A stretch of DNA of 64,000 bases from Sphingomonadales bacterium Ga0077557 (GTDB lineage: Bacteria; Pseudomonadota; Alphaproteobacteria; Sphingomonadales; Sphingomonadaceae), in assembly GCA_001464615.1 (NCBI GenBank), contig LNFI01000010.1, forward strand, positions 38,867 through 102,866, given 5' to 3'. Position 1 is the stretch's first letter, and every line of letters starts with the position of its first letter. Under the pieces are notes generated by a model that ran no database searches, was not told where the DNA came from, and was given only the letters and a program-made list of their open reading frames with translations. This document shows positions 10,352 through 48,091 of the stretch, one piece after another. The translations under genes and the position numbers were made by a program.

Positions 10352-10399
10352 CGGCCGCAACGTGATCGATTGATTTCCCCGTCGAAAAAGGCGGGGGCA

Positions 10400-10497
10400 A
10401 AGGGCGCGCCAACGCCCTTCACGCAGGAGGAACCCTGCACCTCAGGCGCCAGCTGGCCGCCGTCGATCCCCGCCACCGGGCACCCCGGTGGTGTGGG
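10400..10497 (+). promoter_or_regulatory. Multi-hairpin structured leader upstream of the methylase
   Basis: AAGGGCG-cgccaa-CGCCCTT (10400-10419), GCAGG-aggaac-CCTGC (10423-10438), CCACCGGG-cac-CCCGGTGG (10473-10491). Confidence 0.5.
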
Positions 10498-10513
10498 CAG
10501 ATAGGATGCAGAG

Positions 10514-11317: not shown

Positions 11318-11370
11318 GCGATCAAGTGCTCCAGGTTGTCTTGTCCAAGACTCCAGAACCTTGCGCCGCG

Positions 11371-11409
11371 CTACACCGGCAATTCGAGATAGGTGAGACG
11401 CGCCATCAT
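11371..11409 (-). pseudogene. N-terminal stub of a VOC/glyoxalase-family gene cut by the prophage
   Basis: SD GGAGGA then ATG ATG GCG CGT CTC ACC TAT CTC GAA TTG CCG GTG TAG = MMARLTYLELPV*; YxELP is the first strand of small VOC proteins; the stop is supplied by the phage end. Confidence 0.65.
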
Positions 11410-11421
11410 GTCCTCCAGTTA

Positions 11422-11436
11422 GTTCTTGATATGTTC
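11422..11436. promoter_or_regulatory. Alphaproteobacterial LexA (SOS) box
   Basis: GTTC-TTGATAT-GTTC = GTTC-N7-GTTC, 23 nt upstream of the radical SAM repair gene. Confidence 0.85.
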
Positions 11437-11459
11437 TACAGATATCTCCACCAAGGGCA

Positions 11460-19494: not shown

Positions 19495-20737
19495 AACGCA
19501 GCACCTGGACTGGATCGGTATTGGCCGCCTTGAAGGCGGGATAAAGCGTGGCGAGAAAGCTCAGCACCAGCGCCATGGCGGCAATCACGACAATCTCGAC
19601 AGGATTGGGCTTTGATGGCAGCTCCGTCAGGAACCGGATCGACGGGTCCCAGAGATTTTGCCCCGTTACCTTCTGGATGAACCAGACGACATCCTGCCGG
19701 AAAAACAGGAAGACAAAACCGAGCACCAAGCCGGCGACCATCCCCAGCGCGCCGATTGTGGTGCCAACCACCATGAAAATCTTGATCAACCCGCCCCGCG
19801 TCGCCCCCATCGTGCGCAAAATCGCAATGTCGCGCGTCTTGGCGCGGACCAGCATGATCAGCGACGACAAAATGTTGAACACCGCGACGAGGATGATGAT
19901 CGACAGCACCGTGAACATCGCGATCCGTTCAACCTCCAGCGCTTCGAACAATTGCGCATTGAGCTGACGCCAATCCGCCACCAATCCGCGGCTGCCGACC
20001 CGGGCGGCAAAGGGGGCAATGATCGTTCCGACCTGATCGGCGTTGACGGTATCAAGTTCAACCACGCCAACCGCGTCGCCCATCAATAGCAACGACTGTG
20101 CGTCGCCCAGCGGCATGACCACATAGGCCTTGTCATAATCATACACGCCAATCTCGAAAATGGCGCCGACCGTGTAGGAGACGATCCGCGGCACCGTCCC
20201 AAAGGGCGTTGTCTGGCCTTGCGGGCTCAATAGCGAAATCTGGCTGCCGACCTGCGCGCCCAGCGCCTCCGCCAGCCTTGATCCGATGCCAATCCGGCCG
20301 CTGCCCGGTGTCAGGCTGGCAAGCGATCCGCTCAATTCCTTGCCCTTTAGCGTGGCATTGGAGCGGATATCGGCGACGCGCATCCCGCGCACCAAAATTG
20401 CCTCCACCCGGCCATTATAGGTGGCCATCAACGGCTGCTCGATTAGCGGGGTCGCCTGCGTAATCCCCGGGGTCTCGCGCGCCTGGGCGACGATCTCGCG
20501 CCAATCGGGCAAGCGTCCGCCATAGCCCTGCACTACCGCATGGCCATTCAGCCCGACGATCTTGTCGAACAGCTCCGCGCGAAAGCCGTTCATCACGCTC
20601 ATCACGATGACCAAGGCGGCAACCCCAAGCATCACCGCGGCCAGGCTGATCCCGGCAACAAGAAAGATAAACCCTTCCCCCTTGCCGGGCAAAAGATAGC
20701 GGCGCGCGATCATCCGTTCATAGCGCGAAAGGAGCAT
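19487..20737 (-). CDS. lolC: Lipoprotein-releasing ABC transporter permease LolC/E
   Basis: [46 protein letters not shown]; start set at MLLSRYE. Confidence 0.93.
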
Positions 20738-29766: not shown

Positions 29767-30696
29767 ATGACCATTTCGGTTTTCATCGACGGTGCTGCCG
29801 GTACCACTGGCTTGGAAATTGGCGACCGTTTGGCGGCGCGCCGCGATCTTGCGCTGATCAGCCTGGATGACACGCAGCGCAAAGACATCGCAGCACGGCG
29901 CCAAGCGCTGAATGATGCCGATTTCGTGATTCTCTGCCTGCCCGACGATGCCGCCCGTGAGGCGGTTGCGCTGATCGACAATGACCGGACTCGGGTGATC
30001 GACGCCTCAACGGCTTTTCGGACGGCCGATGGCTGGACCTATGGCTTTCCAGAGCTGGAGCCGGGCCAGGCCAATGCCATTGCGACTGCCGCCCGCGTTA
30101 GCAACCCGGGCTGTTATCCCACGGGCTTTCTGGCGCTGGTCCGGCCATTGATCCGCGCCGGGTTGATCCCCGCAGATTGGGTGCTGAGCGTGAACGCGGT
30201 GTCAGGCTATTCGGGTGGCGGCAAATCAATGATTGCTGAATTCGAAGGCGGCGGCGAGACAACGGCCTTCCGCGCTTATGCCATGGCGCTTGCCCACAAA
30301 CATGTGCCCGAAATGCAAAAACATGCTCGGCTCGCGCACCCGCCGCTCTTCCTGCCCGCGGTCGCCAATCGCTATCGTGGGATGGTTGTAGAGGTTGCCC
30401 TGCCCCTCCACGCTTTTCTCCGCCGCCCCAGCCTCGCCGCCTGTGAAGCGATGCTCCGCGACGTCTATCGCGACAGTCCGATCATCCGCGTGGCCGAAGG
30501 CGACGCCGCGCTGGTGCGGATCGAGGATGATGCGGAGACAGATCGCCTCACGATCAGGATCAGTGGCAATAGCGATCTTGGTCAGGCACGCCTCACCGCC
30601 ACGCTTGACAATCTTGGCAAGGGTGCGGCCGGCGCGGCGGTCCAAAGCCTGAATATCATGGCGGGAATCGAGCCGACGACCGGGCTCAATTTGTGA
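29767..30696 (+). CDS. argC: N-acetyl-gamma-glutamyl-phosphate reductase (type 2)
   Basis: VFIDGAAGTTGL, VSNPGCYPTG, SGYSGGG, LDNLGKGAAGAAVQ. Confidence 0.96.
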   Translation: MTISVFIDGAAGTTGLEIGDRLAARRDLALISLDDTQRKDIAARRQALNDADFVILCLPDDAAREAVALIDNDRTRVIDASTAFRTADGWTYGFPELEPGQANAIATAARVSNPGCYPTGFLALVRPLIRAGLIPADWVLSVNAVSGYSGGGKSMIAEFEGGGETTAFRAYAMALAHKHVPEMQKHARLAHPPLFLPAVANRYRGMVVEVALPLHAFLRRPSLAACEAMLRDVYRDSPIIRVAEGDAALVRIEDDAETDRLTIRISGNSDLGQARLTATLDNLGKGAAGAAVQSLNIMAGIEPTTGLNL

Positions 30697-30709
30697 AGGA
30701 CAGCGCCAC

Positions 30710-32173
30710 ATGACTCGCCAGCCCGTGGCCAAGTTGCTGCTTTTTGGCGCAACGGGCGATCTTGCCCAGCGAATGCTGCTCCCATCGCTTTTTGGGTTGC
30801 ACGCTGATGGCCTGCTGCCCGATGGCTTGACGATTACCGGCACCGCGCGATCAGACCATGACGACGATAGCTACCGGGCTTTCGCCGCCACCGCGCTCGC
30901 CACCTATCTGCCTGCCGATCGCAAGGATGAAGCGGTGATCGCCAGCTTTATCGAGCGAATAGGGTATCAGGCGCTCGATGCATCAACGATCGAAGGGTTT
31001 GCCGAACTGGCCGCCAAGATCGGCGATATCTCAGGCGGCCTGGCAATTTTCCTGTCGACCGCCCCCTCCCTGTTCCGCGCCACGATCAAGGGACTTGAAT
31101 CAGCCGGTCTCGCAGGCGCAAATGTCCGCATCGGGCTCGAAAAGCCGCTCGGCCATGATCTCGCCTCAAGCTGCGAGATCAATGATGCCGTCGCGGAGGT
31201 GTTCAATGAGGAACAGACCTTCCGGATCGACCATTATCTCGGCAAGGAAACGGTGCAGAATATTCTGGCGCTGCGTTTCGGCAATACGCTGTTCGAGCCG
31301 ATCTGGAATGCGCGGGGCATCGACAATGTCCAGATCACGATCGCTGAAACGGTCGGGCTGGAAGGGCGCGCCGGCTATTATGACGGTTCGGGCGCAATGC
31401 GCGACATGGTCCAAAACCATATGCTCCAATTGCTCGCGTTGATTGCGATGGAGCCCCCGGCGCGGTTTGACGGCACGTCGATCCGCGATGAAAAGGTGAA
31501 AGTGCTACGGTCGCTTCGCCCGATCAGCGTGGCCGACGCCCCGGCGCTGACAGTGACCGGCCAATATACCAGCGGCGCTGTCAACGGGGAGATCGTGCGC
31601 GGCTATGCCGATGAGCTGGAGCGCCCCTCAACGACCGAGACATTTGTCGCGATCAAGGCCAATGTCGATAACTGGCGCTGGCAGGGCACGCCCTTTTACT
31701 TGCGCACCGGCAAACGACTGCCAGCGCGCCAATCAGAAATTGCTATCCAGTTCAAACCCGTCCCGCATTCGATGTTCGCGGCGCGCGGCGGCAAGCTTCA
31801 ACCGAACACCTTGGTCATCCGGCTGCAACCAGACGAATATGTCCGCCTGTTGGTGATGGCTAAGGAACCGGGGCTCGACCGCGAAGGCGTCCGGCTGCGC
31901 GAAGTGCCACTCGACCTTAGCCTGGACACGCAATTCGCCGGATCGCGGCGCCGGATCGCCTATGAACGGCTGTTGCTCGATCTGATCGAGGGGGATCCGA
32001 CCCTTTTCGTCCGCCGCGATGAGGTGGAAGCGCAGTGGCAATGGATTGATGGCATCCGTGCCGGCTGGGTCGCCAATGATGTGAAGCCAAAATCCTATGC
32101 CGCTGGCAGCTGGGGCCCGTCCGCCGCGGTTGCCTTGACCGAGCGTGATGGCGCGAGCTGGCATGATGATTGA
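30710..32173 (+). CDS. zwf: Glucose-6-phosphate dehydrogenase
   Basis: FGATGDLA, LEKPLG, RIDHYLGKE, DMVQNH, PFYLRTGKR. Confidence 0.98.
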   Translation: MTRQPVAKLLLFGATGDLAQRMLLPSLFGLHADGLLPDGLTITGTARSDHDDDSYRAFAATALATYLPADRKDEAVIASFIERIGYQALDASTIEGFAELAAKIGDISGGLAIFLSTAPSLFRATIKGLESAGLAGANVRIGLEKPLGHDLASSCEINDAVAEVFNEEQTFRIDHYLGKETVQNILALRFGNTLFEPIWNARGIDNVQITIAETVGLEGRAGYYDGSGAMRDMVQNHMLQLLALIAMEPPARFDGTSIRDEKVKVLRSLRPISVADAPALTVTGQYTSGAVNGEIVRGYADELERPSTTETFVAIKANVDNWRWQGTPFYLRTGKRLPARQSEIAIQFKPVPHSMFAARGGKLQPNTLVIRLQPDEYVRLLVMAKEPGLDREGVRLREVPLDLSLDTQFAGSRRRIAYERLLLDLIEGDPTLFVRRDEVEAQWQWIDGIRAGWVANDVKPKSYAAGSWGPSAAVALTERDGASWHDD

Positions 32174-32299
32174 CGCACGCGCATAAAAATTCATCATCTG
32201 CCGGGACTTGATCCGGGGTATTGTGCCACAAGCCGAGCGTTGATGGCACGACATGCCGGGGGGACTCGGCTCGACGCTTTCAAAACCAACGGAGCGACT

Positions 32300-33004
32300 A
32301 TGACCGAGATTGAATGGTGGGACTATGAAGACGCCGATGAAATGGCCGATGCAGTGTCGGGCGATGCGGCGTTCATCATCGAAAGCGCCATCGATGCGCG
32401 CGGTGCGGCCGTCATCGCGCTGCCCGGTGGCAAGACCCCGCTGGCCATTTATGAAAAGCTTGCCAAGGCCAAGCTCGACTGGAAGCGCGTAACGATCCTG
32501 CCGACCGACGATCGGCTGGTGCCAATGGGCGACGCGCTGTCGAACATCACCGCCATCGCCAAGGTATTCCTGCCCAAAGGGGTCCGCGTCTTGCCGATTA
32601 CCAGTGAGGCTGCGGCTGACTACAAGGCCGCTGGTCGCGCGGCAGATGCGCGCTTGCAGGATGTCCATTGGCCGCTCGATCTATGCGTGCTCGGCGTAGG
32701 CGCCGACGGGCATACCGCGTCGATCTTCCCAGGTCCTGATTTCGATGAAGCGGTGAATGGTCCCAAGGAGCGCCGTGCCGTTGGTGTGATGCCAGGCGAT
32801 CTGCCCGCCGAAGCGCCAGTTGCGCGCGTCACCCTGACCCGCGAGGCGATTATTGCGTCGCGCGCGTTGATGATCGCGGTGACCGGGCAAGCGAAGCGCG
32901 ATATCATTGAGCGCGCGATCAATGACGGGCCGATGTCGCCCTATCCGATTGGTCGCATTCTGGCCGATGTCGAATTGCCCGTGGATATTCACTGGAGCGC
33001 ATAA
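32300..33004 (+). CDS. pgl: 6-phosphogluconolactonase
   Basis: [27 protein letters not shown]. Confidence 0.93.
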
Positions 33005-33005
33005 A

Positions 33006-34819
<1,814 letters not shown>

Positions 34820-34823
<4 letters not shown>

Positions 34824-35791
34824 CCCAGGTTGTCTCGGTCGATATTGGCGGCACGCATGCCCGCTTCGCCATTGCCGAAGTGGCGGGTGGCCGTGTGGTC
34901 TCGCTTGGCGAACCCGTGACGCAAAAGACCGCCGAGCATGCCAGCCTGCAAACCGCCTGGCAGGCCTTTGGCGCACAGCACGGCGCGCCCCTGCCCCGCG
35001 CTGCCGCGATCGCCGTCGCCTCGCCGATCGGTGGCGATATCATCAAGCTCACCAACAATCCGTGGATCATCCGGCCAGCGCTGGTGAAGGAACGGCTCGA
35101 CGTCGATGACTTCATTTTGATCAACGATTTCGGCGCGATTGGCCACGCCGTCGCGCAGGTCGGGCCCGAGGATTTTCTCCACCTCTGTGGCCCCGACGCG
35201 CCCTTGCCCGATCATGGATCGATCACCGTCTGCGGTCCCGGCACCGGGCTGGGCGTCGCGCAAGTGTTGCAAGTGCCCGGCGGCTATCATGTCATTGAGA
35301 CAGAGGGCGGGCATATGGACTTCGCCCCGCTTGACGGGCTGGAGGACTCCATCCTGAAGCGGTTGCGCAAGACCTTCACTCGTGTGTCGGTGGAGCGGAT
35401 ATGTTCGGGGCCTGGCATCGTGGCCATCTATGAGACGCTCGCTGAGATTGAGGGGCGCGCGGTGCAGCGGCTCGATGACAAGACGATCTGGACGATGGCG
35501 CTCGATGGCAGCGACAGTCTGGCGCTGGCGGCGCTCGACCGCTTCTGCCTGGCGCTGGGCGCGGTGGCGGGCGATCTGGCGCTGGCGCATGGCCCGCACG
35601 GCGTTGTGATTGCCGGTGGGCTGGGCCTTCGCCTTAAGGATAAGCTCGTCAAATCGGGCTTCGAACAGCGCTTCACCGCCAAAGGGCGCTTCCAGAACTT
35701 GATGCGGTCCATCCCCGTCAAGCTCATCACTCACCCGCAACCGGGCCTGTTCGGCGCGGCGGCGGCCTTTGCGCAAAGGCATGCCCAATGA
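34820..35791 (+). CDS. glk: Glucokinase
   Basis: [35 protein letters not shown]. Confidence 0.96.
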
Positions 35792-36447
35792 CCGACCCAA
35801 TGAGCCAAAGTGCGACGATCGACCAAATCATGCGGACCAGCGCCGTCATCCCCGTGCTGGTGATTGACGATGCCGCCACCGCCCGGCCGCTTGCTGCGGC
35901 ATTGGTGGCAGGTGGCCTGCGCGTGCTGGAGGTAACATTGCGGACCCCCGCCGCGCTGGAGGCCATTCGTGAAATGAAGCAGGTGCCCGGCGCAATCGTC
36001 GGGGCGGGCACGGTGGTGAATGCCGATCAATTTGCCAGCGCGATGGCCGCCGGCGCCGAATTTATCGTCTCCCCCGGCCTGACCGAACGGCTCGCTCGTC
36101 CCATCATCGACAGCGGCGTCCCCTTTTTGCCTGGCGTCGCTAATGCCGGTGATATCATGGCGGGCCTCGACCTCGGCCTCACCCATTTCAAATTCTTCCC
36201 CGCCGAAGCGAGTGGCGGCCTGAAGGCGCTAAAGGCCCTCGCCGGGCCATTCTACCAGTGCAAATTCTGCCCGACCGGGGGGATTAGCGAATCCACTGCC
36301 GCGGCATGGCTAGCGTTCGACCCGGTGCTCTGCGTCGGCGGCAGCTGGGTGACCCCGAAAGGCGCGAGTATGGCGGAAGTGGAGGCACTGGCAAGGGTGG
36401 CCAGTGGCCTTAGGGTGCGAGACTTGTCTACAGCTTCAATCGGCTGA
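35788..36447 (+). CDS. eda: KDPG aldolase
   Basis: [27 protein letters not shown]. Confidence 0.96.
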
Positions 36448-36506
36448 CTCACGACGATAGGCTGACCGCAACTTTCTTTTGGGCCAGAACCCATTATATT
36501 TGCCCG

Positions 36507-37163
36507 ATGTATCGCTTCCAACATTGGGCTGGACCTTTGATTTTCCTGAGCGCTTTGTTGGGCGTTTTCGGAATTGGAAGACATTTCTTTGTTGCGAAGG
36601 ATGCTATAGGATTCTGGTCAATAGTATTATCTCTGTTGATGTTCTGGCTGACATCTAAAACCGTTGGCCGCGGTTTTGTCACAGAGGCTGCGGCACGTGT
36701 CGCGCGTTCGCCAGATTGGTTTGATTTGTCGAATACTGAGCGATGTTATTTGATGTGTTTTGACTGGCCAGTTTTCGAAACTTTGCGTGAACGAGAGGTA
36801 GAAAAACTTTTCCGGCACGCTGTAATCGCGATAGATTTCGATGATAACACGATCTCACTGCAACCGATTGATGCCATCTATATTATGCCGTATTTTTTGA
36901 TAAGAATTGCTTCGGCCGCATCAGGATTCGGACTGTCTGTGAGCAATCTGTCGCAGGGCGTTTTTGGCGCAAAGATACGGGGCAGCCGAATCATTTTGAG
37001 AACATTGGCAAACGACCAGCGCATCATGATTCGACTACGAAACGAGATCGGAAATCACCTTTCTATTTCGCTCAAACATTTTATCGAAAAACTTGAATCG
37101 GCTTACGTCGATACGCTGAGCCCAGAAGACCGATATCAGTACTTCAGGCAAAAATACGCATGA
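36507..37163 (+). CDS. Hypothetical membrane protein, lower GC
   Basis: 218-aa ORF with two N-terminal hydrophobic segments; visibly AT-richer than flanks. Confidence 0.6.
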   Translation: MYRFQHWAGPLIFLSALLGVFGIGRHFFVAKDAIGFWSIVLSLLMFWLTSKTVGRGFVTEAAARVARSPDWFDLSNTERCYLMCFDWPVFETLREREVEKLFRHAVIAIDFDDNTISLQPIDAIYIMPYFLIRIASAASGFGLSVSNLSQGVFGAKIRGSRIILRTLANDQRIMIRLRNEIGNHLSISLKHFIEKLESAYVDTLSPEDRYQYFRQKYA

Positions 37164-37206
37164 TCAATGTATATCTTGAATTGATGTCGGTGGTGCCCTG
37201 ACTGCC

Positions 37207-37428
37207 CTACCGCTCGCCCAGCGCCTTCCGGATCGCATACCATTTCTGCACATTGACATTATGCTGTTGCACCGTGTCGGCAAATACGTGCCCGCCCGTG
37301 CCATCCGCGACGAGATAGGGCGCCGATGATTGCGCGGGATCAAGCCCAGCGTCGATGCTCGCACGGCGGGGGTTGCAGATGGGGCCCGCCGGCAGGCCCG
37401 TCATTGCATAGGTATTGTAGGCGTTCAT
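37207..37428 (-). pseudogene. Diverged duplicate of the mltG 3' end
   Basis: Ungapped 222-nt match to 39029..39250; 47 mismatches by manual count (about 79% identity). Confidence 0.9.
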
Positions 37429-37445
37429 CGCCCGACCCTGGGGCC

Positions 37446-38246
37446 TTAATAATGGCGGCAGAATTCGGGTTTGTCGTTGCTGAGCCCACAACCGCGATCC
37501 GTTTGCGCGCGGATGCTGGCACAGTTGTTGTGCACGCTACATTGTGAGCTGAGCCCGGGCGTTACCGCATCGCACCGATGCCCAAGCCGCTGGGCAGAGG
37601 CAAAGCCGATCTCACTGACGCAACTGCGCGAGTGCGGAATGTCCGGCGCGTAGCGATCATGACCAGGATGATCGCGGCGATCATGCTTCTTCACGATAAC
37701 CTTGGTGACAGGGTGACCGCGCTTGGCATGCCGGTGCCATGGATGAGTGGGGCGTTGCCACGGCGTGGCTGGCTTCTGATAGCCATCAAGGTAACGATTA
37801 TAGGCAGCGGCGACGCAGCCCGCATCCTCACAGGCATTGCGTTCGCTCACAAAGGCATTTTGCTGGGCAGCAAGAACGCTCAGCCGCTCTGGCGAGGCGC
37901 TACGGTTCGCCGCTTCCCATTGCAGCGCGAGCCGACGGTGCAGCAGTCCGAGTTGATCATGTTCGCAGACCAGCCATTGCGCGCGCCGCAGCGATCCCGA
38001 GCAGGCAAAATCCAGCGATAGCCAGGCGTCAGGCGGCGGGACATTCTCGTCATAGCGAAACCGCGATTGCCGCTTCAATTCGGCAATCCGCGCGCGCTCC
38101 CGGTCTTCCCGCTGGCGCGCCAGCCGGTCTTCATAGGCACGCCGTTCATAGCTGCGCTGGTTAGCGTCACGGGAATAATCCGCGTTTCTATACCAATCAC
38201 AGCTATTTAGGCCGATCAGCATTAGCAACAGCATGAGCTTTTTCAT
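37446..38246 (-). CDS. Lipoprotein with LprI (lysozyme-inhibitor)-like domain and Cys-rich C-terminal domain
   Basis: Lipobox GLNSC; DFAC...LVCEHDQL..LHRRL...QNAFVSERNACEDAGCVAAAY; C-terminal SC..C...QC..NNC...GC. Confidence 0.65.
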   Translation of the reverse strand: MKKLMLLLMLIGLNSCDWYRNADYSRDANQRSYERRAYEDRLARQREDRERARIAELKRQSRFRYDENVPPPDAWLSLDFACSGSLRRAQWLVCEHDQLGLLHRRLALQWEAANRSASPERLSVLAAQQNAFVSERNACEDAGCVAAAYNRYLDGYQKPATPWQRPTHPWHRHAKRGHPVTKVIVKKHDRRDHPGHDRYAPDIPHSRSCVSEIGFASAQRLGHRCDAVTPGLSSQCSVHNNCASIRAQTDRGCGLSNDKPEFCRHY

Positions 38247-38520
38247 CGGGAGGCCTTCCGAATCGCCGAGCTGGCGTCATGACGTCACTTTTTCATGAAA
38301 CCGGCCTGTACGAAAGCTGAATTACTGACCCAGGCGGAATGTTCCTCGCCGTCGGGAATCGCAGATGCAAGCGCACCCCACCTGCCATCATTCGATCCGG
38401 TTCGTTGCGCCAGCTGCGCCTGGGTAATACCCAAAGGCACGCAAATGATCGAGGTAGAAGCGATAGCGCGGGCGGCGACGGCGTTGCGTGAGGTACGGGC
38501 GGCGGATGGCGACGCACGCC

Positions 38521-38982
38521 CTAAAATGGAGCGGGAAACTTATACAGCAGCGTCACACGCTGGATGTTGCGATCGTTTTCCAGCACCACCTCTATCTCCC
38601 AATACCACTTGCCAAGCCCTTCGGGGAAGTAAGTCAGGCGAATTGGCTGCCAGAGACGATTGTCGGTTGGGACACGCGTGAAACTCCAGACTTTCTGGAA
38701 CGGCAGGTCCAGAAATGCCTTTCGGGACGATATCTTTGTCGCGGCGTTTGACGCCATTGATCCCGCCAACAGGTCGAATGGCACAAACGCATTGGCCGTC
38801 ATCCGACGTTGCGCGTCTTCCAATCTTCTAACTAGGGTAGCCGCCTCCTCTTCAGTTAATCCTTGGAGGTGCGGCTTGGTTGGAGCTGCTGAAGCGGTCG
38901 CCAGCTGAGCTGACTGCGCGAGGGCATCCGAGGGGTGCAGGAATAGGCCGACAACAACAACAACTTGCCAAATAGTCATCAT
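38521..38982 (-). CDS. Hypothetical secreted protein
   Basis: SD GAGGAGG; signal peptide ending ALA-Q; 153 aa. Confidence 0.65.
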   Translation of the reverse strand: MMTIWQVVVVVGLFLHPSDALAQSAQLATASAAPTKPHLQGLTEEEAATLVRRLEDAQRRMTANAFVPFDLLAGSMASNAATKISSRKAFLDLPFQKVWSFTRVPTDNRLWQPIRLTYFPEGLGKWYWEIEVVLENDRNIQRVTLLYKFPAPF

Positions 38983-39028
38983 CGCCTCCTCAGTGAGCGC
39001 TCTCGCCTTGGCCAAGCAGCGATCCGCC

Positions 39029-39997
39029 CTATCGTTCGCCGCGTGCCCGGCGGATCGCATACCATTTCTGCACATTGGCGTTGTGCTGGTCGAGCGTGTC
39101 CGCAAACACATGCCCGCCCGTGCCGTCTGCCACAAAATATAGCGCAGTCGATTGCGCCGGGTCGAGCACCGCGTCGATGCTGGCGCGCCCCGGGTTGCAG
39201 ATCGGCCCGGCGGGAAGGCCCGTCATCGCATAGGTATTATAAGCGTTCACCGCCTGCACCTCTGAACGCAGGATCCGCCGCCCCAGCGGCTTGCCCTTGG
39301 TGATCGGATAAATGATCGTCGGATCGGCCTGGAGCATCATCCCGCGCTTGAGCCGGTTCGAATACACCGCCGCGACCGTGCGACGTTCAGATGCCTTGCC
39401 GGTTTCCTTCTCGACGATGGAAGCAAGGATCAACGCCTCACGCGGCGTCGTCACCGCGATGCCGGGCTTGCGATTGTCCCAGGCTCTGGCGAGATATTTC
39501 AGCATCGCGCGCTGCATCCGATCAAGCACGCCCTGGCGGGTATCACCGCGTTGGAAGCTGTAACTGTCGGGCAGCACGGTTCCCTCGATCGGCACGGCGA
39601 CGTCACCCACCAGGCCGCTTGCCGCCATCAGCCGCTCCTGGACTACCACTGAGGGCAAGCCTTCTGGAATCGTCACAAAGCGTTGGAGCGTCTTCCCGCC
39701 TTGCAGCAGCTTCAGAATATCAGCCTGGCTGAGATGCGCGGGCACGCGATATTCACCGGCCTTGATCGGCGCGCCCGACCCAAACACTTTGGCAAACAGC
39801 TTGAACCGGGCGGCCGAGGGAATCATGCCCGCCGCTTCCAGCCGATCAGCGGTGCCAGACAGCGTTGCGCCTTCAGCCACCTGGAACGTCGCGTTTCTGG
39901 GCGTCGGTCCCCGGCCACCCCAATCCTGCACCAGCAGGAACAGCGCGCCGATTGCAACAAGGACCACGATCAGGCCGAAACAGCCGAGTTTGCGCAT
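39029..39997 (-). CDS. mltG: Endolytic transglycosylase MltG
   Basis: LASIVEKET, LQADPT, YNTY..TGLPAGPICNPG, LYFVADGTGGH. Confidence 0.96.
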   Translation of the reverse strand: MRKLGCFGLIVVLVAIGALFLLVQDWGGRGPTPRNATFQVAEGATLSGTADRLEAAGMIPSAARFKLFAKVFGSGAPIKAGEYRVPAHLSQADILKLLQGGKTLQRFVTIPEGLPSVVVQERLMAASGLVGDVAVPIEGTVLPDSYSFQRGDTRQGVLDRMQRAMLKYLARAWDNRKPGIAVTTPREALILASIVEKETGKASERRTVAAVYSNRLKRGMMLQADPTIIYPITKGKPLGRRILRSEVQAVNAYNTYAMTGLPAGPICNPGRASIDAVLDPAQSTALYFVADGTGGHVFADTLDQHNANVQKWYAIRRARGER

Positions 39998-40031
39998 GCT
40001 AGCCCACTTTCGTTTCAGCCGATCGACCGGA

Positions 40032-41291
40032 TCAGATTGCCTTCATCACCAGGCTGGCATTGGTACCACCAAAGCCAAAGCTGTTGTTGAGCACTGCTTT
40101 TACCTGCCGCTCCTTGGCGACATGCGGCACCAGATCGACGCCTTCGCAGCCATCGCTTGGGTCATCCAAGTTCAGCGTCGGCGGCACGATCTGGTCGCGC
40201 ATCGCCAGAATGCAGAAAATGCTCTCCACAGCGCCCGCGCCACCGAGCAAATGCCCGATCGCGGATTTGGTCGAACTCATCGACAAGGTGCCGATCGCAT
40301 TGCCGAACAGGCGGCGAACCGCGCCCAGTTCCAGCTCATCGCCCAGCGGGGTCGAGGTGCCATGCGCATTGATATAGTCGATATCGCCAAGCGACAGGCC
40401 TGAGCGCTTCATCGCCATCTGCATCGACCGGAACGCCCCTGCGCCCTCCGGATGCGGTGCGGTGACGTGATAGGCATCGCCCGACATGCCGTAACCGACG
40501 ATCTCGGCATAGATCTTCGCGCCGCGCGCTTTGGCGTGTTCATATTCCTCAAGGCAAACGACACCAGCGCCTTCGCCCATCACAAAGCCGTCGCGGCCCT
40601 TGTCATAGGGGCGGCTGCCCCGTTCCGGTGCGTCGTTAAACCCGGTCGACAGCGCGCGGGCCTGCGAAAAGCCAGCGATACCAATCGGGCAGATCGCGCC
40701 TTCGGCCCCGCCGGCGAGCATCACATCGGCATCGTCAAGCATGATCATCCGCGCGGCATCGCCAATCGAATGCGCGCCCGTCGAACAGGCGGTGACCACC
40801 GCGTGGTTGGGCCCCATCAGGCCGTATTTTATTTGCACCTGGCCCGAGATCAGATTGATCAGCCGACCATGCACGAAATGCGGGGAAACGCGGCGCGGCC
40901 CCTTTTCATGAAGCACGATCGATTCGCTGGCGATGCCCGGCAAACCGCCGATTCCCGAACCGATCGAGCAACCGGCGCGCAGCCGTTGTTCTTCGGTCAT
41001 ATCGGTCAGACCGGCATCTTCCAGCGCCTGGCCAGCGGCGTCGATGCCAAAAATAATGAACGGATCGACCTGGCGCTGCACCTTGTGGTCAACGCGCTTG
41101 CCGGGATCAAAGCCATACGCATGGTCGGCCGGCTTCACCTCACAGGCATAGCGGCAGACATAATCGGTCGCGTCAAAGCGCGTGATCATTCCCGCGCCAG
41201 ACTTTGCGGCCAGAATGTTGGCCCAGGCTGTTTCGACATCCGCCCCTAGCGGGGTGACAAGTCCAAGCCCGGTGACGACAACACGGCGCAT
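40032..41291 (-). CDS. fabF: Beta-ketoacyl-ACP synthase II
   Basis: MRRVVVTGLG, TACSTG, NAHGTST, GHLLGGAG, NSFGFGG. Confidence 0.98.
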   Translation of the reverse strand: MRRVVVTGLGLVTPLGADVETAWANILAAKSGAGMITRFDATDYVCRYACEVKPADHAYGFDPGKRVDHKVQRQVDPFIIFGIDAAGQALEDAGLTDMTEEQRLRAGCSIGSGIGGLPGIASESIVLHEKGPRRVSPHFVHGRLINLISGQVQIKYGLMGPNHAVVTACSTGAHSIGDAARMIMLDDADVMLAGGAEGAICPIGIAGFSQARALSTGFNDAPERGSRPYDKGRDGFVMGEGAGVVCLEEYEHAKARGAKIYAEIVGYGMSGDAYHVTAPHPEGAGAFRSMQMAMKRSGLSLGDIDYINAHGTSTPLGDELELGAVRRLFGNAIGTLSMSSTKSAIGHLLGGAGAVESIFCILAMRDQIVPPTLNLDDPSDGCEGVDLVPHVAKERQVKAVLNNSFGFGGTNASLVMKAI

Positions 41292-41434
41292 GGCAATCTC
41301 CGTTCTTGCTTCAAATACCAAAGCGGCCCCCCAACCCCGGAAAACCCTGGGACGAGGAGCCGCTCAGTCGTTTCGGCCCCACAGGGCCAGGGGGCTGTCC
41401 GGGCGTATCGCTCGCGCGATGCTGCCCTGAATGC

Positions 41435-41671
41435 TCAGCCCTTATGCTCGTCAATATAGGTGATCGCATCCTTGACGGTGCCGATCTTCTCAGCCGCATC
41501 GTCAGGGATCTCGACCCCGAATTCTTCCTCAAACGCCATCACCAGCTCGACGATATCAAGGCTGTCGGCGCCCAGATCATCGATGAAACTTGCATCTTCG
41601 GTGACCTTTTCGGTCTCGACGCCGAGATGCTCGACGACGATCTTCTTCACGCGATCGGCAGTCTCGCTCAT
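41435..41671 (-). CDS. acpP: Acyl carrier protein
   Basis: [14 protein letters not shown]. Confidence 0.98.
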
Positions 41672-41801
41672 GCTATCTTCCCTCTTGTAGCGTTGGGTGT
41701 TTGTAATCCTGATCGCACGTAGAACGCGTTGCCGGACCTTGCAAGGGGGGAGCCGTCACCGCACCGCAGCGATATGATATTAGCCCCCCGATAATGGCGC
41801 A

Positions 41802-42542
41802 TTACAGCATCGCCATGCCGCCATTCACATGCAGCGTCTGGCCAGTGACATAGCCTGCCTCGCGGCTCGACAGATAGACGACGGCGGCACCAATATCAGG
41901 GCCTTCGCCCATATGCCCCGCCGGGATGCGGGCATTGAGCGCTTCTTTCTGGGCATCGGGCAGCCCATCCGTCATCGCGGTCCGGATAAAGCCGGGCGCA
42001 ACGCAATTGACGGTGATTCCGCGGCTAGCCAGCTCCTGGGCAAGCGCCTTGGACATCGCCGTCAGCCCGCCTTTGGAGGCCGCATAATTGGCCTGACCGG
42101 GGTTACCCGTCGCCCCCACAACCGACGTTATCGAGATGATCCGGCCAAACCGCGCCTTCATCATCGGTCGTGCCGCGGCGCGCGCGAGCCGAAAGGCCGC
42201 TTCCAGATTGACGCGGATCACCTGATCCCATTCGTCATCCTTCATCCGCATCACCAGATTGTCGCGCGTCAGCCCGGCATTATTGACGAGAATATCCAGC
42301 TTGCCGCCAAGCGCCTCAACCGCTTGACCGACCAGCGCGTCGACCGCGCTGCCATCTGACAGGTCGCACGGCACGGCAACATGATCACCGCCCAAACTTG
42401 CCCGAAATGCCTCCAGCTTGTCGACATTCGATCCCGACACAGCCAGCCGAGCGCCCTGCCCCGCCAAAGCCTGCGCGATCGCCGAACCAATCCCCCCCGA
42501 AGCACCAGTCACCAACGCCGTCATGCCAGTTAGGTCGAACAT
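41802..42542 (-). CDS. fabG: 3-oxoacyl-ACP reductase
   Basis: TGASGGIG, VNNAG, NYAASK, VAPGFI. Confidence 0.96.
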   Translation of the reverse strand: MFDLTGMTALVTGASGGIGSAIAQALAGQGARLAVSGSNVDKLEAFRASLGGDHVAVPCDLSDGSAVDALVGQAVEALGGKLDILVNNAGLTRDNLVMRMKDDEWDQVIRVNLEAAFRLARAAARPMMKARFGRIISITSVVGATGNPGQANYAASKGGLTAMSKALAQELASRGITVNCVAPGFIRTAMTDGLPDAQKEALNARIPAGHMGEGPDIGAAVVYLSSREAGYVTGQTLHVNGGMAML

Positions 42543-42543
42543 G

Positions 42544-42972
42544 TCATTCTATCCTCTTGATTTGGTTCACGCGGAGGCGCGGAGACGCGGAGTGGTGGTC
42601 ATTGACAACGCGTTTCACGCCTTCTTTGAGCGTTGCACCGCCGAAGTTGATCAGCAGCCCTACGGGCTGCCTTGTCAGTCTCAAATAGGTAAGCAATTGC
42701 TTGCCATGGGCTGCGGTCAACCGCTCGGTAGATTTGATTTCGACAATCAAGCGACCGTCAACCAGCAGGTCAATCTTGAATGCAGCTTCAAAGCACATTC
42801 CGTCAAAATTGATATCGACGGGACGCTGGCGAGCGACGGCATAGCCCATCCGCGTCAACCGGCCTGCAAGAAGCAACTCATAGACGCTTTCCAGCAGGCC
42901 CGGCCCCAATTCGCGATGCAGCTTGAGCGCTACATCGAGAACATCGCCGCTGATCTCGTCGATGTCCCTCAC
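42544..42972 (-). CDS. GxxExxY protein (PD-(D/E)XK nuclease superfamily)
   Basis: GPGLLESVYE signature, IDLLVDGRLIVEIKS, QLLTYL, GLLINFG. Confidence 0.92.
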   Translation of the reverse strand: MRDIDEISGDVLDVALKLHRELGPGLLESVYELLLAGRLTRMGYAVARQRPVDINFDGMCFEAAFKIDLLVDGRLIVEIKSTERLTAAHGKQLLTYLRLTRQPVGLLINFGGATLKEGVKRVVNDHHSASPRLRVNQIKRIE

Positions 42973-43006
42973 TTCTTCTCCGCGCCTCCGCGCCTCCGCG
43001 TGAACC
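42564..43006. repeat. 29-bp inverted repeats (42564-42592, 42978-43006), each with three NCGCGGAG units, flanking the GxxExxY gene
   Basis: GGTTCACGCGGAGGCGCGGAGACGCGGAG versus reverse complement of right copy GGTTCACGCGGAGGCGCGGAGGCGCGGAG: 28/29. Confidence 0.93.
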
Positions 43007-43012
43007 CAAAAG

Positions 43013-43948
43013 TTATAACGTCTTCGCCAGCGCCTCGATATCGGCCATCGTCACCACCCCAATTGCCTCGGCGTCTTCAACAGTGCGCTTCACCATCGGT
43101 GCCAGCACTTTTCCGCCAAATTCGACAAAACTATCGACCCCCGCCGCATGCATCGCCAGCATCGTTTCCCGCCAGCGCACCACGCCGGTTACCTGATCGA
43201 CCAGCCGCGCACGGATCTCGTCAGGTACCGTGATCGGGGCGGCCAGCACATTGGCGAACACCGCAACCAAGGGCGTGTCGATCCGCGCCGCCTTCAGCGC
43301 ATGCAGCATCAAATCAGCGGCGGGTTGCATCAGGCTGCAGTGAAAAGGCGCCGATACGCTCAGCATCATGCCGCGCTTGGCCCCCATATCCTTGGCCATG
43401 GCCACTGCCCGCTCGATCGCGCCGATATGGCCGGACAAAACGACCTGGCCAGCGGCGTTATCATTGGCGACGGCGCACACTTCACCCTGCGCCGCTGCAT
43501 CGGCGATCGCCTGGGCCTGTTCCAGCGTCGCCCCCAGCAGCGCCGCCATCCCGCCAAGACCGACCGGCACTGCATTCTGCATTGCCCGGCCGCGAATCTT
43601 GAGCAACCGCGCCGTCAGCGACAAACTCATCGCGTCCGCCGCGCACAAGGCGGTATATTCGCCCAGCGAATGCCCCGCCACGAATTGTGCTTTTTCGGAA
43701 ATGCGGATGCCGCCTTCGCGCTCCAGCACCCGTAATGTCGCAATCGCATTCGCCATGATCGCTGGCTGCGCGTTTTCGGTCAGCGTCAGCTCGTCTTCGG
43801 GTCCTTCGGTCATCAGCTTGAACAGGTTCTGGCCGATCGACTCATCGACCTCCTGAAAGACTTCGCGGGCGATTGGGCTGGCATCGGCCAGCGCCCGGCC
43901 CATGCCGACTGCCTGGCTACCTTGCCCGGGAAAGAGAAAAGCGCGGAT
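43013..43948 (-). CDS. fabD: Malonyl-CoA-ACP transacylase (apparent ATC start)
   Basis: RAFLFPGQGSQ, GHSLGEY, SAPFHCS; no ATG/GTG/TTG between the upstream in-frame TAA and FPGQGSQ; GGAG 8 nt before ATC. Confidence 0.9.
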   Translation of the reverse strand: MRAFLFPGQGSQAVGMGRALADASPIAREVFQEVDESIGQNLFKLMTEGPEDELTLTENAQPAIMANAIATLRVLEREGGIRISEKAQFVAGHSLGEYTALCAADAMSLSLTARLLKIRGRAMQNAVPVGLGGMAALLGATLEQAQAIADAAAQGEVCAVANDNAAGQVVLSGHIGAIERAVAMAKDMGAKRGMMLSVSAPFHCSLMQPAADLMLHALKAARIDTPLVAVFANVLAAPITVPDEIRARLVDQVTGVVRWRETMLAMHAAGVDSFVEFGGKVLAPMVKRTVEDAEAIGVVTMADIEALAKTL

Positions 43949-44021
43949 GGTCCTAGCTCCTGATTGCCGCTCGAAGCGGCCCCGTTAGGAGCGTGGCGCC
44001 AGACTGGCAAGCATTGCAGCG

Positions 44022-45461
44022 TCAGCGCGGCATGCGCACCAGCAGCATCGTTTGATTTGGCGTGAACATCCGCCGCTGCAACGGCGACGGGACAAATGCG
44101 CGGCCGCCCAGTGAATCAATCAGCCCCCCAAGCGGCGTTGGCGGGGAAGGATACCGCGCCAGCACAACTCCAGCTGGCGCGATCGATTGCGGTGCCAGGA
44201 CAAGGCCGCCCGGCTGTGTCGGCACCGGGCGAAGATTTGCCCGGCCCGCAAAGCGCATCGGCAGCACTGCCCGGCGCACCATGACGGGGTCGCCGCTGAT
44301 CATTTCTGCTGGATGGGCTTTGCTGGCGGCGAGCAGCGCCTCCATTTCCCAGCGCGGATGGGCATTGCCCACGCTCAGCATCAGCAGGTTGACCATAATC
44401 ATGCCCCCCAGCACCGGCCATCGCCACCACCCGCCTGACCGCCCCATCCACAGCGCAATCAAGATGATCGCCAAAATGGCAGGCAGCATGAAATAGCGTG
44501 GATTGAGCACCAGTTTTTCGGTCAACACCGCAACCAGCAGAAAATCCGCCGCCGCCATCGCCGCCAGCACGATCATCGGCCCGGCGCGTCCAGCCGGCAG
44601 CAGATTTTGTCGGTTGATCAGGACCGCCAGGCTCGCAACCCAGAACAGCAGGCCGAAGTCATCATTGATGAACAACACCAGCACCGGATCAATCGCGGGG
44701 TGCAGCAGGAAATTACCCTCATGATTGGCCGCACGATCAATGTGGGAATCATGATGAAAGGCGATGTCGTAACGGCGCAGGGGGTCGCCAGTGAGCAGCC
44801 ATTGAAACAGCGCCTCCCCGCCCAATATCAGCGCCAACCCCAGGCCAGCGGCGATCAAACTACCGCGCGAAACGGGTCGGCCGATCAGGAACAGCGGCCC
44901 CATCGCCACCAGCGACAGCAACGATGTTTCACGACAAAGGATCGCGGTGCCGAACAGGACACCGGCGGCCAGCCCGCGCAGCATCGCCGCCCGCCCCACG
45001 CCGCCTTCGCCGAGCAGCCACGCTCCCCCCAGCAACAGCATCGTTTCGAGCAGATCGACCCCCACGGTCGTCGCGTTGCTGACCACGACCGGCAAGGTCG
45101 CTGCGAGCATTGCCGCAATCCAGCCGGTGCGCGCCCCTCCAATCCGGGCAGCGAACAAGCCAACCATCGCGATCAATGCCGCATACCAGAGCAACGCCGT
45201 CGCTGCGAAGGCTGTAAAATTCCGCCCGAACAACATCAGCATCCCGGCAAAGCTCCACAGCAGCGGAAACCGTGTCGCCCAGTGGTTATCGCCGGCAAAG
45301 GGAGGATCGGTCAGCCAATGTTCGGCGCCGACAAAATACAGCGAATCATCCGACGCGATAAACCCGGTCCAGCCGATCGTCAGCGCCGCCACCATCGCCA
45401 GCGCCAGCAGCACGATCGCCCCGGCATGGTCCTGCCGCCGCCATGATTTCCCCTGATCCAT
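44022..45461 (-). CDS. GT-C fold glycosyltransferase (ArnT/PMT family 39-like)
   Basis: Multi-TM; ASDDSLY loop motif, CRET, NPRY. Confidence 0.75.
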   Translation of the reverse strand: MDQGKSWRRQDHAGAIVLLALAMVAALTIGWTGFIASDDSLYFVGAEHWLTDPPFAGDNHWATRFPLLWSFAGMLMLFGRNFTAFAATALLWYAALIAMVGLFAARIGGARTGWIAAMLAATLPVVVSNATTVGVDLLETMLLLGGAWLLGEGGVGRAAMLRGLAAGVLFGTAILCRETSLLSLVAMGPLFLIGRPVSRGSLIAAGLGLALILGGEALFQWLLTGDPLRRYDIAFHHDSHIDRAANHEGNFLLHPAIDPVLVLFINDDFGLLFWVASLAVLINRQNLLPAGRAGPMIVLAAMAAADFLLVAVLTEKLVLNPRYFMLPAILAIILIALWMGRSGGWWRWPVLGGMIMVNLLMLSVGNAHPRWEMEALLAASKAHPAEMISGDPVMVRRAVLPMRFAGRANLRPVPTQPGGLVLAPQSIAPAGVVLARYPSPPTPLGGLIDSLGGRAFVPSPLQRRMFTPNQTMLLVRMPR

Positions 45462-45611
45462 CCTGTCAGGCGTAGCGAAAAAGGGTGGATCCTTGCTTAA
45501 TTTCCGAACGATACCGGCAACCAAGGCAAAACTGCTGACGTCATGCAGTCATTTGCTCGCCATTCGAAATCCGTGCTGTTATGCTCGCGTCGCAACGAGA
45601 GGAAATCGGCC

Positions 45612-46553
45612 ATGTTCCGGATGAGCTTGCGTGCGACATTACTGCTTTTCGCCTTATCGCTCCAGCCGGGCACGGCGGTTGCGCAGCAGCAGCCCTATAA
45701 ATCCGCACCGGGCCCGGAAATCCTGCCCGATAATTTTCACGGCAAGGTCAGCTATTTCGGCAATCACAGCGGTGAAGTCATCGTCGAACGCACCGGCGAA
45801 TCGCGCAAGACCAAGAGCGATTGCACCCGCCCCGATCAGCGCTGCCCAAAACGAATCGGGGGCAGCCTTCAGGTCGATCTGGAATTTGACGGCCTGGTAG
45901 TGCGCGGCAGCTTTCGCGGATCAGGCGGATTGCACGACAGCGGCCTGATCGGTCGCCGCCAGGGCGCGCAATGTCGCTTGTTCGATTTGACCGACGGATC
46001 GGTCTGGGCCGGCCATTGTGATCGCGATGGCTTTGTCGGCACCGTCAAAAGCGTACCTGGCGCAGCCACGCAAATGTCGCTGAATTTCGAAGTCGTCGGC
46101 ACCAAGGTCAATGATTATGCCGAGCGGGATCGTCGTCGGCGTGAGGCTTTGGCCGCCCAGCGTCGCAGCGAATTTCTGCGCGCGGTGATTGGCAGCAATG
46201 CGCCAGTTGATGAGCGCTTTATCGCGGCCATTGAGCTTGATGCCTATAGCTGGCGCTATGACCGGTTGCGGGTAGAGACATTGCGGATCGTTCGGCGCAG
46301 CAAGGAGCGCGGCGGGCGATATCAAATCGAAGCAGAATTCGAATTGTCCAGCGGCGGTCGCGGATGGGCGCGCGGGCAGGTCGATCGCGAATCGGTGGTT
46401 TGTGTCGAATTTTGGGATGTTCAGGGCAAATGCCGCGCCATTAATCTGTCCCCGCAGCTTCCCGATCCAGAGCCCTATGACGATGATAAGCCCTTATCAT
46501 CCTTTGTGATGCCAAAGGCGCTGCCGATTCCGCGTGAGGCCTATGGCGTCTGA
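45612..46553 (+). CDS. Hypothetical secreted protein
   Basis: SD GAGGA; signal peptide ...AVA-Q; several paired Cys. Confidence 0.6.
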   Translation: MFRMSLRATLLLFALSLQPGTAVAQQQPYKSAPGPEILPDNFHGKVSYFGNHSGEVIVERTGESRKTKSDCTRPDQRCPKRIGGSLQVDLEFDGLVVRGSFRGSGGLHDSGLIGRRQGAQCRLFDLTDGSVWAGHCDRDGFVGTVKSVPGAATQMSLNFEVVGTKVNDYAERDRRRREALAAQRRSEFLRAVIGSNAPVDERFIAAIELDAYSWRYDRLRVETLRIVRRSKERGGRYQIEAEFELSSGGRGWARGQVDRESVVCVEFWDVQGKCRAINLSPQLPDPEPYDDDKPLSSFVMPKALPIPREAYGV

Positions 46554-46799
46554 CCGCGCGGCTATCGCTCTCTAAAGGGCGGCGATGACGCGGTGATGCT
46601 CGGCATCACCACTGGCACAATTCATCCACGGCCGATTCCGGGCAGCAGGCTTGCCTTCCGCCCGGTTTTCGCTATGAGAACCGCATCGCTGGGGTAAAGC
46701 GCGCGTCGCTTTGCCCCTGCTTTGCTTTTACGACGACAGCCGGAGGGGCCCCCGCATGGTGCGGTGCGGTCAGCAATCGGCCAAGATGAAGGACAAGAC

Positions 46800-47237
46800 A
46801 TGGCTCTTTATGAGCACGTGTTCCTTGCGCGCCAGGATCTGGCACAAGCGCAGGTGGACGCGCTGGCGGAAACCGCCACCAAGATCATCGAAGACAATAA
46901 GGGCAAGGTCACCAAGACCGAATCCTGGGGTCTCCGTTCGATCGCCTATCGCATCGCGAAGAACCGCAAGGCGCATTATGTGATGCTCGAAATCGACGCC
47001 CCCGCCGGTGTCGTCGCCGAACTCGAGCGCCAGACGCAGATCAACGAAGACATCATCCGCTACATGACCGTGAAGGTCGATGCGTTGGAAGCCGGCCCGT
47101 CGGCGATGATGCGCAAGGGCGATCGTGACCGTGACAGCCGCCGTGGCGGTGAGCGCGGCGACCGTCCGGATCGTGGTGATCGCGGCGACCGTGGCGATCG
47201 CGGCGACCGCCCCCGTCGTGACTTTGACGGCGAATAA
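46800..47237 (+). CDS. rpsF: 30S ribosomal protein S6
   Basis: [26 protein letters not shown]-repeat tail. Confidence 0.97.
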
Positions 47238-47251
47238 GGAGCATATAGACA

Positions 47252-47476
47252 ATGGCACGCCCATTTTTCCGCCGCCGCAAGAGCTGCCCCTTCTCCGCGA
47301 AGGACGCCCCCCGGATTGACTATAAAGACGTCCGCCTGCTGCAGGGCTTCGTGTCCGAACGCGGCAAGATCGTCCCGTCGCGCATCACCTCGGTGAGCGC
47401 GAAGAAGCAGCGCGAACTCGCCCAGGCGATTAAGCGCGCCCGTCATCTGGGCTTGCTGCCCTATATCGTTAAGTAA
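47252..47476 (+). CDS. rpsR: 30S ribosomal protein S18
   Basis: [30 protein letters not shown]. Confidence 0.98.
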
Positions 47477-47488
47477 GGAGGGACTGAC

Positions 47489-48091
47489 ATGGAAGTCATC
47501 CTGCTCGAACGCGTCGAGAAGCTCGGTGCCATCGGCGACGTCGTCAAGGTAAAGGACGGGTTCGCCCGGAATTTCCTGCTCCCCAACAAAAAGGCGCTGC
47601 GTTCGAACGCTGCCAACCGCAAGGTGTTCGAAACCAACCGCGAGCGGATCGTGGCCGAAAACGCCGCGCGCCGTTCGGTTGCGCAGGAAGAGGCCAAGTC
47701 GGTCGACGGCGTCACCGTCACGATGATCCGCCAGTCGTCGAACACCGGCCAGCTCTACGGCTCGGTCGCGGTGCGCGACCTGGTCGAAGCGTTGGATGCC
47801 GAAGGTCACAAGGTCCCGAAGAACGCGATCGTGCTCAACAAGCCGATCAAGGCAATCGGCATCTATGACGTGAAGGTCTCGCTCCACGCCGAAGTATCGG
47901 TGATGATCAAGGTCAACATCGCGCGTTCGCCGGAAGAAGCCGAAATGCAGGCCAAGGGCGTCAACGTGATGGAGGCAATGTTCGAAAAGGACGAAGCCGG
48001 CTTCACTGAGGATTACGATCCCAACGCCGAACCCGGCGCGACCGCCGAAGTGGTGGCCGAAGCGACGGCCGAGGAACCGACCGAAGGTTGA
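47489..48091 (+). CDS. rplI: 50S ribosomal protein L9
   Basis: MEVILLERVEKLG, VKDGFARNFL, GQLYGSV. Confidence 0.98.
   Translation: MEVILLERVEKLGAIGDVVKVKDGFARNFLLPNKKALRSNAANRKVFETNRERIVAENAARRSVAQEEAKSVDGVTVTMIRQSSNTGQLYGSVAVRDLVEALDAEGHKVPKNAIVLNKPIKAIGIYDVKVSLHAEVSVMIKVNIARSPEEAEMQAKGVNVMEAMFEKDEAGFTEDYDPNAEPGATAEVVAEATAEEPTEG

Follow-up and report, generated by a model that had tools for sequence, protein, structure and literature searches.

The stretch of DNA analysed here, called the window, comprises 64,000 nucleotides (nt) of contig LNFI01000010.1 from Sphingomonadales bacterium Ga0077557 (assembly GCA_001464615.1). Our subject is the interval in it that separates eda, the gene of the 2-keto-3-deoxy-6-phosphogluconate (KDPG) aldolase, from mltG, the gene of an endolytic transglycosylase of the YceG family. 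Within this interval the 3′ end of mltG is found a second time, beside an AT-rich orphan gene. The locus contains the following features.

34820-35791, plus strand: glk.
35788-36447, plus strand: eda (KDPG aldolase), complete (Pfam PF01081, E = 4e-73).
~36350-37432, no strand: putative imported patch, made up of a donor-type eda 3′ tract, the AT-rich orphan and a donor-type mltG tip.
36507-37163, plus strand: AT-rich orphan gene, 218 amino acids (aa), ~45% GC.
37207-37428, minus strand: mltG′ tip, the last 73 codons and stop of an apparently foreign mltG (Pfam YceG positions 212-275 of 275, E = 1.7e-20).
37425-37432: proposed illegitimate junction with microhomology, from the comparison of the window, the sister locus L003 and mltG alleles.
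37446-38246, minus strand: cargo1, a putative lipoprotein, 266 aa.
38352-38489, plus strand: eda′ fragment, a decayed copy of the eda 3′ end (tblastn E = 3e-15 to 7e-16 against eda tips).
38521-38982, minus strand: cargo2, a secreted protein, 153 aa.
39029-39997, minus strand: mltG (YceG-family endolytic transglycosylase), complete and apparently native (Pfam PF02618, E = 1.3e-78).
40032-41321, minus strand: fabF.

The repeat finder, run on the window, aligns positions 37204-37439 with 39026-39261 over 236 nt, ungapped and 79% identical, and a search of the genome itself (3.57 Mb) returns two copies only of the mltG 3′ end, the second with E = 1.3e-52. In the 74 terminal codons, stop included (37207-37428 against 39029-39250), the tip and the resident gene differ at 47 of 222 nt, with 7/5/35 mismatches at the three codon positions, and 11 of the 73 residues are changed (86% aa identity). 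The nonsynonymous and synonymous rates (NG86) are dN 0.080 and dS 1.43, a ratio of 0.056. A sequence-only reading of this DNA had described a ~79% ungapped copy of the last 74 codons and stop, with 11 of 73 residues differing and mismatches mostly at third positions, two exported-protein genes between the copies, an AT-rich orphan beyond them, and no integrase or insertion sequence (IS); all of this is borne out. In particular, Pfam and NCBIfam scans found no integrase or recombinase, excisionase, IS or phage domain in any open reading frame (ORF) across 36448-39028. An assembly artefact was considered and ruled out, since all junctions are covered at 99.97-100% identity by contigs of at least five other runs or assemblies (SRR24226001, SRR22372506, SRR24226021, SRR24226030 and ERZ922818).

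For comparison, 80 Sphingomonas-group loci were taken from a scan of species-representative genomes. The sister genome of the window is the metagenome-assembled genome (MAG) ST_bin13 (L003), which in BLASTN alignments is 95.3% identical over the 6.3 kb of the left flank (30135-36410) and 94.7% identical over the 10.6 kb of the right flank (37425-47973). Positions 36411-37424 of the window, between the two flanks, have no L003 alignment; at this site L003 has ~180 nt instead, 118 nt of which are unalignable. L003 contains mltG, cargo2, eda′, cargo1 and eda, without the orphan and without a second mltG tip. The outgroup L004 (91% identical) contains mltG, cargo1 and eda, and its eda-cargo1 spacer is homologous to that of L003. 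Since the outgroup shares this spacer with L003, the window state is the derived one. Likewise, the genes between the two mltG copies are older than the duplication, since L003 and L004 have them without a second tip. Cargo1, found in both relatives, and cargo2, found in L003, thus appear to be older resident DNA, the window-specific novelty being the orphan and the tip. As for the resident gene, its product has 99% aa identity to MltG of L003, its 3′ end is 97% identical to that of L003 (dS 0.14 between the two tips), and its tip falls in a clade with L003 and L004 (support 99/93). By these measures the resident mltG end appears native and the duplicated tip appears to be the foreign allele.

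The left edge of the novelty lies inside eda. Against L003, the window eda is 93.7% identical over 35800-36340 and 65% over 36350-36412, and L003 and L004 are still alike where the window gene diverges, from ~36350. Because the identity switches at ~36350 while L003 and L004 agree with each other, we place there the start of a donor tract, with a homologous crossover inside eda. A block of eda that is conserved in all lineages lies just before this start, at ~36340-36355. The window eda carries a unique C-terminal extension of 7-10 aa and its end is exceptional in the set of 71 loci; a metagenome contig, L083, shares the extension. It appears that the gene whose 3′ end was exchanged is eda, not mltG, and that the last ~100 nt of eda are donor-derived.

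The right edge carries an 8-nt microhomology at 37425-37432 (plus strand TCATCGCC, or GGCGATGA in the sense of mltG), 18 nt past the stop of cargo1. Read in the direction of mltG, the junction in the window is ...GGGCGATGA up to the break and ACGCCTACAAT beyond it, the break being followed by ACGCC, and the same site reads GGGCGATGAtttc in L003 and aGGCGgTGAACGCC in mltG alleles. The window is L003-like up to TGA and mltG-like from GGCG.TGA on. The motif GGCGATGA is common to the recipient flank, as seen in L003, and, with one mismatch, to the mltG alleles, and its length is within the 3-10 bp range of such joins. The stub had been said to have gained an ATG, which is not so: the ATG at 37428-37426 is recipient-side junction sequence, and no mutation in the tip is involved.

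From where did the tip come? Its nearest real counterparts are the mltG tips of L008 and L010, at 84.7% identity, as against 78.8% for the resident gene, and its dS is 0.57 to L010 as against 1.43 to the resident mltG. In a maximum-likelihood tree of 73 tips it belongs to a clade with L008, L010, L011 and L012 (support 99/95). The two copies sit in separate clades of this tree, are not each other's closest relatives and have a dN/dS of 0.056, nowhere near 1; the earlier view that both diverged as functional mltG alleles in different lineages holds good. The N-terminal three quarters of the YceG domain are missing from the tip. Eight of its residues, most of them at positions that are invariant elsewhere, do not occur in any of 72 real MltG tails (controls have a median of 0 and a maximum of 5). 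It is most likely a non-functional passenger, a pseudogene fragment that has been decaying since its truncation.

The orphan is predicted to have two N-terminal hydrophobic helices. It matches no Pfam, NCBIfam or PADLOC family and gave no match in a scan of JGI metagenomes; among 5.8e9 proteins it has only two relatives, one of which is on L083. This 909-nt contig from the Logan metagenomes, which derives from run SRR18749950, aligns to window positions 36352-37255 at 89% identity and contains the same eda extension, the orphan and an mltG end, with the same two internal junctions as the window. The canonical MltG residues A58 and R70 are intact in L083 and changed to V and L in the window tip. 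Since L083 holds the same block with canonical residues, a donor-type lineage exists, and the copy in the window has decayed. The orphan itself is a real gene, since its dN/dS between the window and L083 is 0.21. In a family-wide genome search for it, the one match was a homologue of 32% identity, in surroundings unrelated to eda or mltG (L087 6785-7864, in genome G259 of the same family); this homologue lies in a 52% GC islet that seemingly cuts an amidohydrolase gene after ~150 codons. No terminal inverted or direct repeats were found around the AT-rich segment of the window, and the idea that it is an IS or a miniature inverted-repeat transposable element was dropped because no such repeats bound it.

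The proteins of cargo1 and cargo2 have N-termini that are signal-peptide-like, and neither matches a family in Pfam, NCBIfam or PADLOC. Cargo1 has the lipobox LNSC and 10 invariant Cys; its family, known only from sphingomonads (21 homologue clusters), is built of a charged low-complexity linker and two Cys-rich domains. It is 98% identical in L003 and 85% in L004 (tblastn), with a dN/dS of 0.06 against L003. Foldseek found no match in the PDB for its AlphaFold model (21 homologues, pLDDT 69). By eye, the central domain of cargo1 resembles DUF1311/LprI, a likeness confirmed by no profile or fold match. Cargo2 is common to L003 only, at 93% identity and with a dN/dS of 0.18. Homologues of the two genes elsewhere are in unrelated contexts and reveal no donor. 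Between them lies the eda′ fragment, which the sequence-only reading overlooked. It corresponds to eda residues ~165-209, possibly beginning at 38283 with an internal deletion, and is also present in L003; the identity of the two copies is 88%, and their mismatches fall 5/5/6 at the three codon positions, an even spread that indicates neutral decay of eda′. Together with cargo2, the fragment appears to be a scar of the same kind in mirror image, left by an earlier import whose anchor was on the mltG side.

Among the Sphingomonas-group loci, the arrangement of fabF and mltG facing eda and glk (fabF-mltG> <eda-glk) is conserved. The gap between the mltG and eda stops extends from -26 to 3054 nt (71 loci), and there are 67 ORFs in 62 gaps, forming 50 clusters. 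An mltG tip is present in 1 of 72 loci, that of the window, and eda fragments are present in 3 of 72. Of the two things that had been expected from related genomes, variable cargo is found and multiple mltG tips are not. The eda-mltG interval is thus a variable hotspot without mobile elements. In L058 (Sphingomonas sp. R647, 8969-11712), an mltG-X block of the L044 type, with a 258-nt eda tail, is joined to a Y-eda gap of the L057 type, and this composite appears to be an independent case of the same scar. In some Sphingomonas genomes mltG and eda, which are convergent, share 26 nt or stand only 3 nt apart (L047 8944-8969; L016, L034). The gap can thus be nil, and DNA inserted at such a site cannot avoid cutting into the end of a gene, as the orphan does with eda. 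In two further loci, eda and glk (L076 10096-11656) and fabF (L074 6616-7883) are split in two frames, probably through assembly or frameshift errors in these MAGs.

We propose that homology-facilitated illegitimate recombination (HFIR), anchored in eda, left the tip behind as a passenger, and we put the probability of this reading at about 0.7. HFIR, described in Streptococcus pneumoniae, Acinetobacter baylyi, Pseudomonas stutzeri and E. coli conjugation, has one homologous end and 3-10 bp of microhomology at the other, and yields an insertion together with a deletion (PMC3240628). In the present case, an ancestor like L003 (eda> <cargo1 eda′> <cargo2 <mltG) would have taken up ~1.1 kb from another Sphingomonas lineage, in which the orphan stood directly between eda and mltG. 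At one end, a homologous crossover in the conserved eda block (~36340-36355) would have replaced the last ~20 eda codons and the stop. The incoming fragment presumably ended 73 codons inside the donor mltG, and its ~220 nt at ~80% identity would have been too short and too diverged for a second crossover, leaving an illegitimate join at the 8-nt microhomology. About 1,080 nt would have come in, at the price of ~180 nt of L003-type recipient DNA. The outcome would be additive rather than a clean cassette swap, one product of the flank-anchored exchange through which the hotspot renews its content. The sequences show the limits of the patch, its gain in the lineage of the window, the foreign source of the tip, the microhomology and the decay; the proposal supposes in addition a linear-DNA substrate, dependence on RecA and some route of DNA entry.

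Several points weigh against this proposal. The microhomology is just 3-8 nt long, has one mismatch to the known mltG alleles and may have arisen by chance. In an approximately unbiased (AU) test, the alternative of uniting the tip with the resident mltG and L003 in one clade was not rejected (p = 0.25, 222 columns). The donor arrangement is known from a single contig, the 909-nt L083, which ends 50 nt into mltG, and a full-length donor mltG is presumed. Finally, the genome has ComEC and lacks a GTA_TIM gene. Entry through a gene transfer agent (GTA) was considered; this gene is missing, and the presence of ComEC does not discriminate between routes.

What else could have produced the same arrangement? 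The sequence-only reading held that recombination had brought a foreign mltG end and the two exported-protein genes into mltG, with the resident tail shifted downstream in the manner of the displaced-tip arrays of rhs, cdi and maf loci. Part of this survives in our proposal, as the tip is apparently foreign and was likely brought in by one-sided recombination; the tip, on the other hand, came with the orphan and from the side of eda, the exported-protein genes are older, and the exchanged end is that of eda. The geometry of tip, cargo and full gene would by itself permit a displacement, HFIR has been proposed for such arrays (PMC5361080), and an acyl-CoA synthetase locus of the same genome, described below, has that geometry. 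However, the supposedly incoming cargo occurs in L003 and L004 although neither has a second tip, it is the functional mltG that has the native tail and the stub that is foreign, and both flanks are equally L003-like up to the patch. Moreover, the MltG tail is conserved rather than polymorphic (ratio 0.056) and no second tip is present in the other 71 genomes. The resemblance to a displaced-tip array therefore fails, with a native resident end, no polymorphic C-terminus and a tip in 1 of 72 genomes, and we regard the displacement as quite improbable. It is also conceivable that the window arrangement is ancestral, and that recombination with a "clean" eda allele removed the orphan and tip from L003 and L004, the tip having been acquired by an earlier one-sided event. 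Gain and loss are inseparable in the absence of a rooted, recombination-free history, and hotspots do turn over through double crossover in their flanks (PMC5635113). Nevertheless, this history would take a loss in each of L003 and L004, or else a transfer from one to the other, which is less parsimonious than one gain; L003 and L004 share the homologous eda-cargo1 spacer and a clade-typical eda end, and it is the window eda end that is odd among 71 loci. We consider an ancestral window state unlikely.

The locus might be the remnant of a site-specific element that integrated at the mltG 3′ end, supplied a replacement tail and later lost its integrase; such elements classically leave direct repeats of a gene's 3′ end that differ mostly at synonymous sites. 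In a variant, a recircularised fragment would have integrated in the Campbell manner, and single-crossover integration of ligated fragments is known (PMC3240628). Against the element, no integrase, excisionase or phage domain is present in the gap, no integrase occurs in the 72 loci, and the DNA bounded by the repeat (cargo1, eda′ and cargo2) is present in L003 without the repeat. Against the variant, a single crossover in eda should have left a second eda tail beside the tip, but there are just 18 nt there. Both forms of this explanation seem very unlikely to us. A local tandem duplication of the mltG end followed by divergence would account for two same-strand copies 1.8 kb apart, but it is hardly credible: dS is 1.43 between the copies, compared with 0.14 between the resident tip and that of L003, L003 lacks the copy, and the nearest relatives of the copy are in other lineages.

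A self-BLAST of the genome uncovered further duplicated gene tails. At C24:18724-18935 and 20491-20702 (L102 2225-2436 and 3992-4203, minus strand), the final 71 codons of a gene for a 562-aa acyl-CoA synthetase recur 1.5 kb downstream; the 12 differences are synonymous throughout, and the geometry fits a displaced resident tail. A 286-aa ORF and DNA of 39-46% GC lie between these copies, and the fragment abuts a convergent gene for a metallo-β-lactamase (MBL)-fold hydrolase; the relatives compared at this locus, at ~80% identity, are too distant for polarity. At C9:17020-17180 and 17417-17577 (L103 1521-1681 and 1918-2078, minus strand), a second copy of the final ~53 nuoF codons stands 400 nt downstream, 82.6% identical, and the stop of the fragment overlaps the GTG start of a 213-aa signal-peptide ORF, as if the two had been imported together. 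In addition, at C28:163919-164223 and 165110-165435 there is an apparent partial 3′ copy (~320 nt, 79%) of a gene of ~1000 aa, 1.2 kb downstream. One might imagine that passenger tips, by offering core-gene homology within the gap, anchor the next import, giving a recombinase-free, self-extending cassette array, an "integron without integrase", at eda/mltG, nuoF and acyl-CoA synthetase for orphan genes and genes of small secreted proteins; such a system strikes us as rather improbable. A weaker variant is that the stub of the window may be co-transcribed with cargo1, its ATG lying 18 nt past the cargo1 stop, and give a regulatory MltG C-terminal peptide. No terminator is predicted between cargo1 and the stub.

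To return to HFIR anchored in eda, the value of the locus would be that of an unusually well-polarised natural gain of this type, with a sister genome that lacks the patch, a donor-type contig and two readable junctions. It suggests that a duplicated tail beside cargo may be the donor's opposite flank rather than a displaced resident end, which changes the genes that are judged to be "new". Passenger tips might also serve as barcodes: here, the tip points to an immediate donor clade for an orphan without other traceable relatives. The general surprise is low, since the mechanism is known.

How does the locus compare with known systems? In work attributed to Hill et al. 1989 and Wang et al. 1997, e14 and phage 21 are said to integrate at the 3′ end of the E. 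coli icd gene, with a duplicated tail that is mostly synonymous. As in the window, a housekeeping gene has its last ~50-70 codons in two copies, with mostly synonymous differences. Unlike the window repeat, those of e14 and phage 21 are attachment (att) sites, which an integrase creates and which delimit the element; the window locus has no integrase, and the DNA enclosed by its repeat is older than the repeat.

The displaced tips of Rhs, CdiA and MafB (Jackson et al. 2009, PMC2935791, as cited in PMC5361080) and the effector-immunity arrays of type VI secretion systems (T6SS), for which HFIR has been proposed as the origin (Kirchberger et al. 2017, PMC5361080), have in common with the window locus that partial 3′ gene copies stand beside new genes and that one-sided recombination is proposed. 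They differ from it in that the window has no toxin, immunity gene or hypervariable tail, and a single donor passenger in place of an array; none of the neighbouring genes matched a toxin or immunity family in Pfam, NCBIfam or PADLOC.

Oliveira et al. 2017 described transfer hotspots free of mobile genetic elements, with recombining core-gene flanks and turnover by double crossover (PMC5635113). The eda-mltG interval is like these in its conserved core flanks, variable content, absence of integrase and recombinant tract in a flank gene (eda; L058). In contrast to their model, in which double crossover replaces the content without a scar, the outcome here would be additive, and partial copies of the flank genes are left behind. 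With HFIR, finally, the locus shares the homologous end in eda, the microhomology end (GGCG.TGA), an insertion of ~1 kb with a deletion, and no need of a dedicated recombinase, so that every sequence-level feature of HFIR appears to be present. The mechanism is already known, and the locus is a further example of it. Two differences distinguish it from the cases selected in the laboratory: the event is deduced from natural genomes, and the non-homologous end is not truly foreign, being the diverged tail of the core gene on the other flank.

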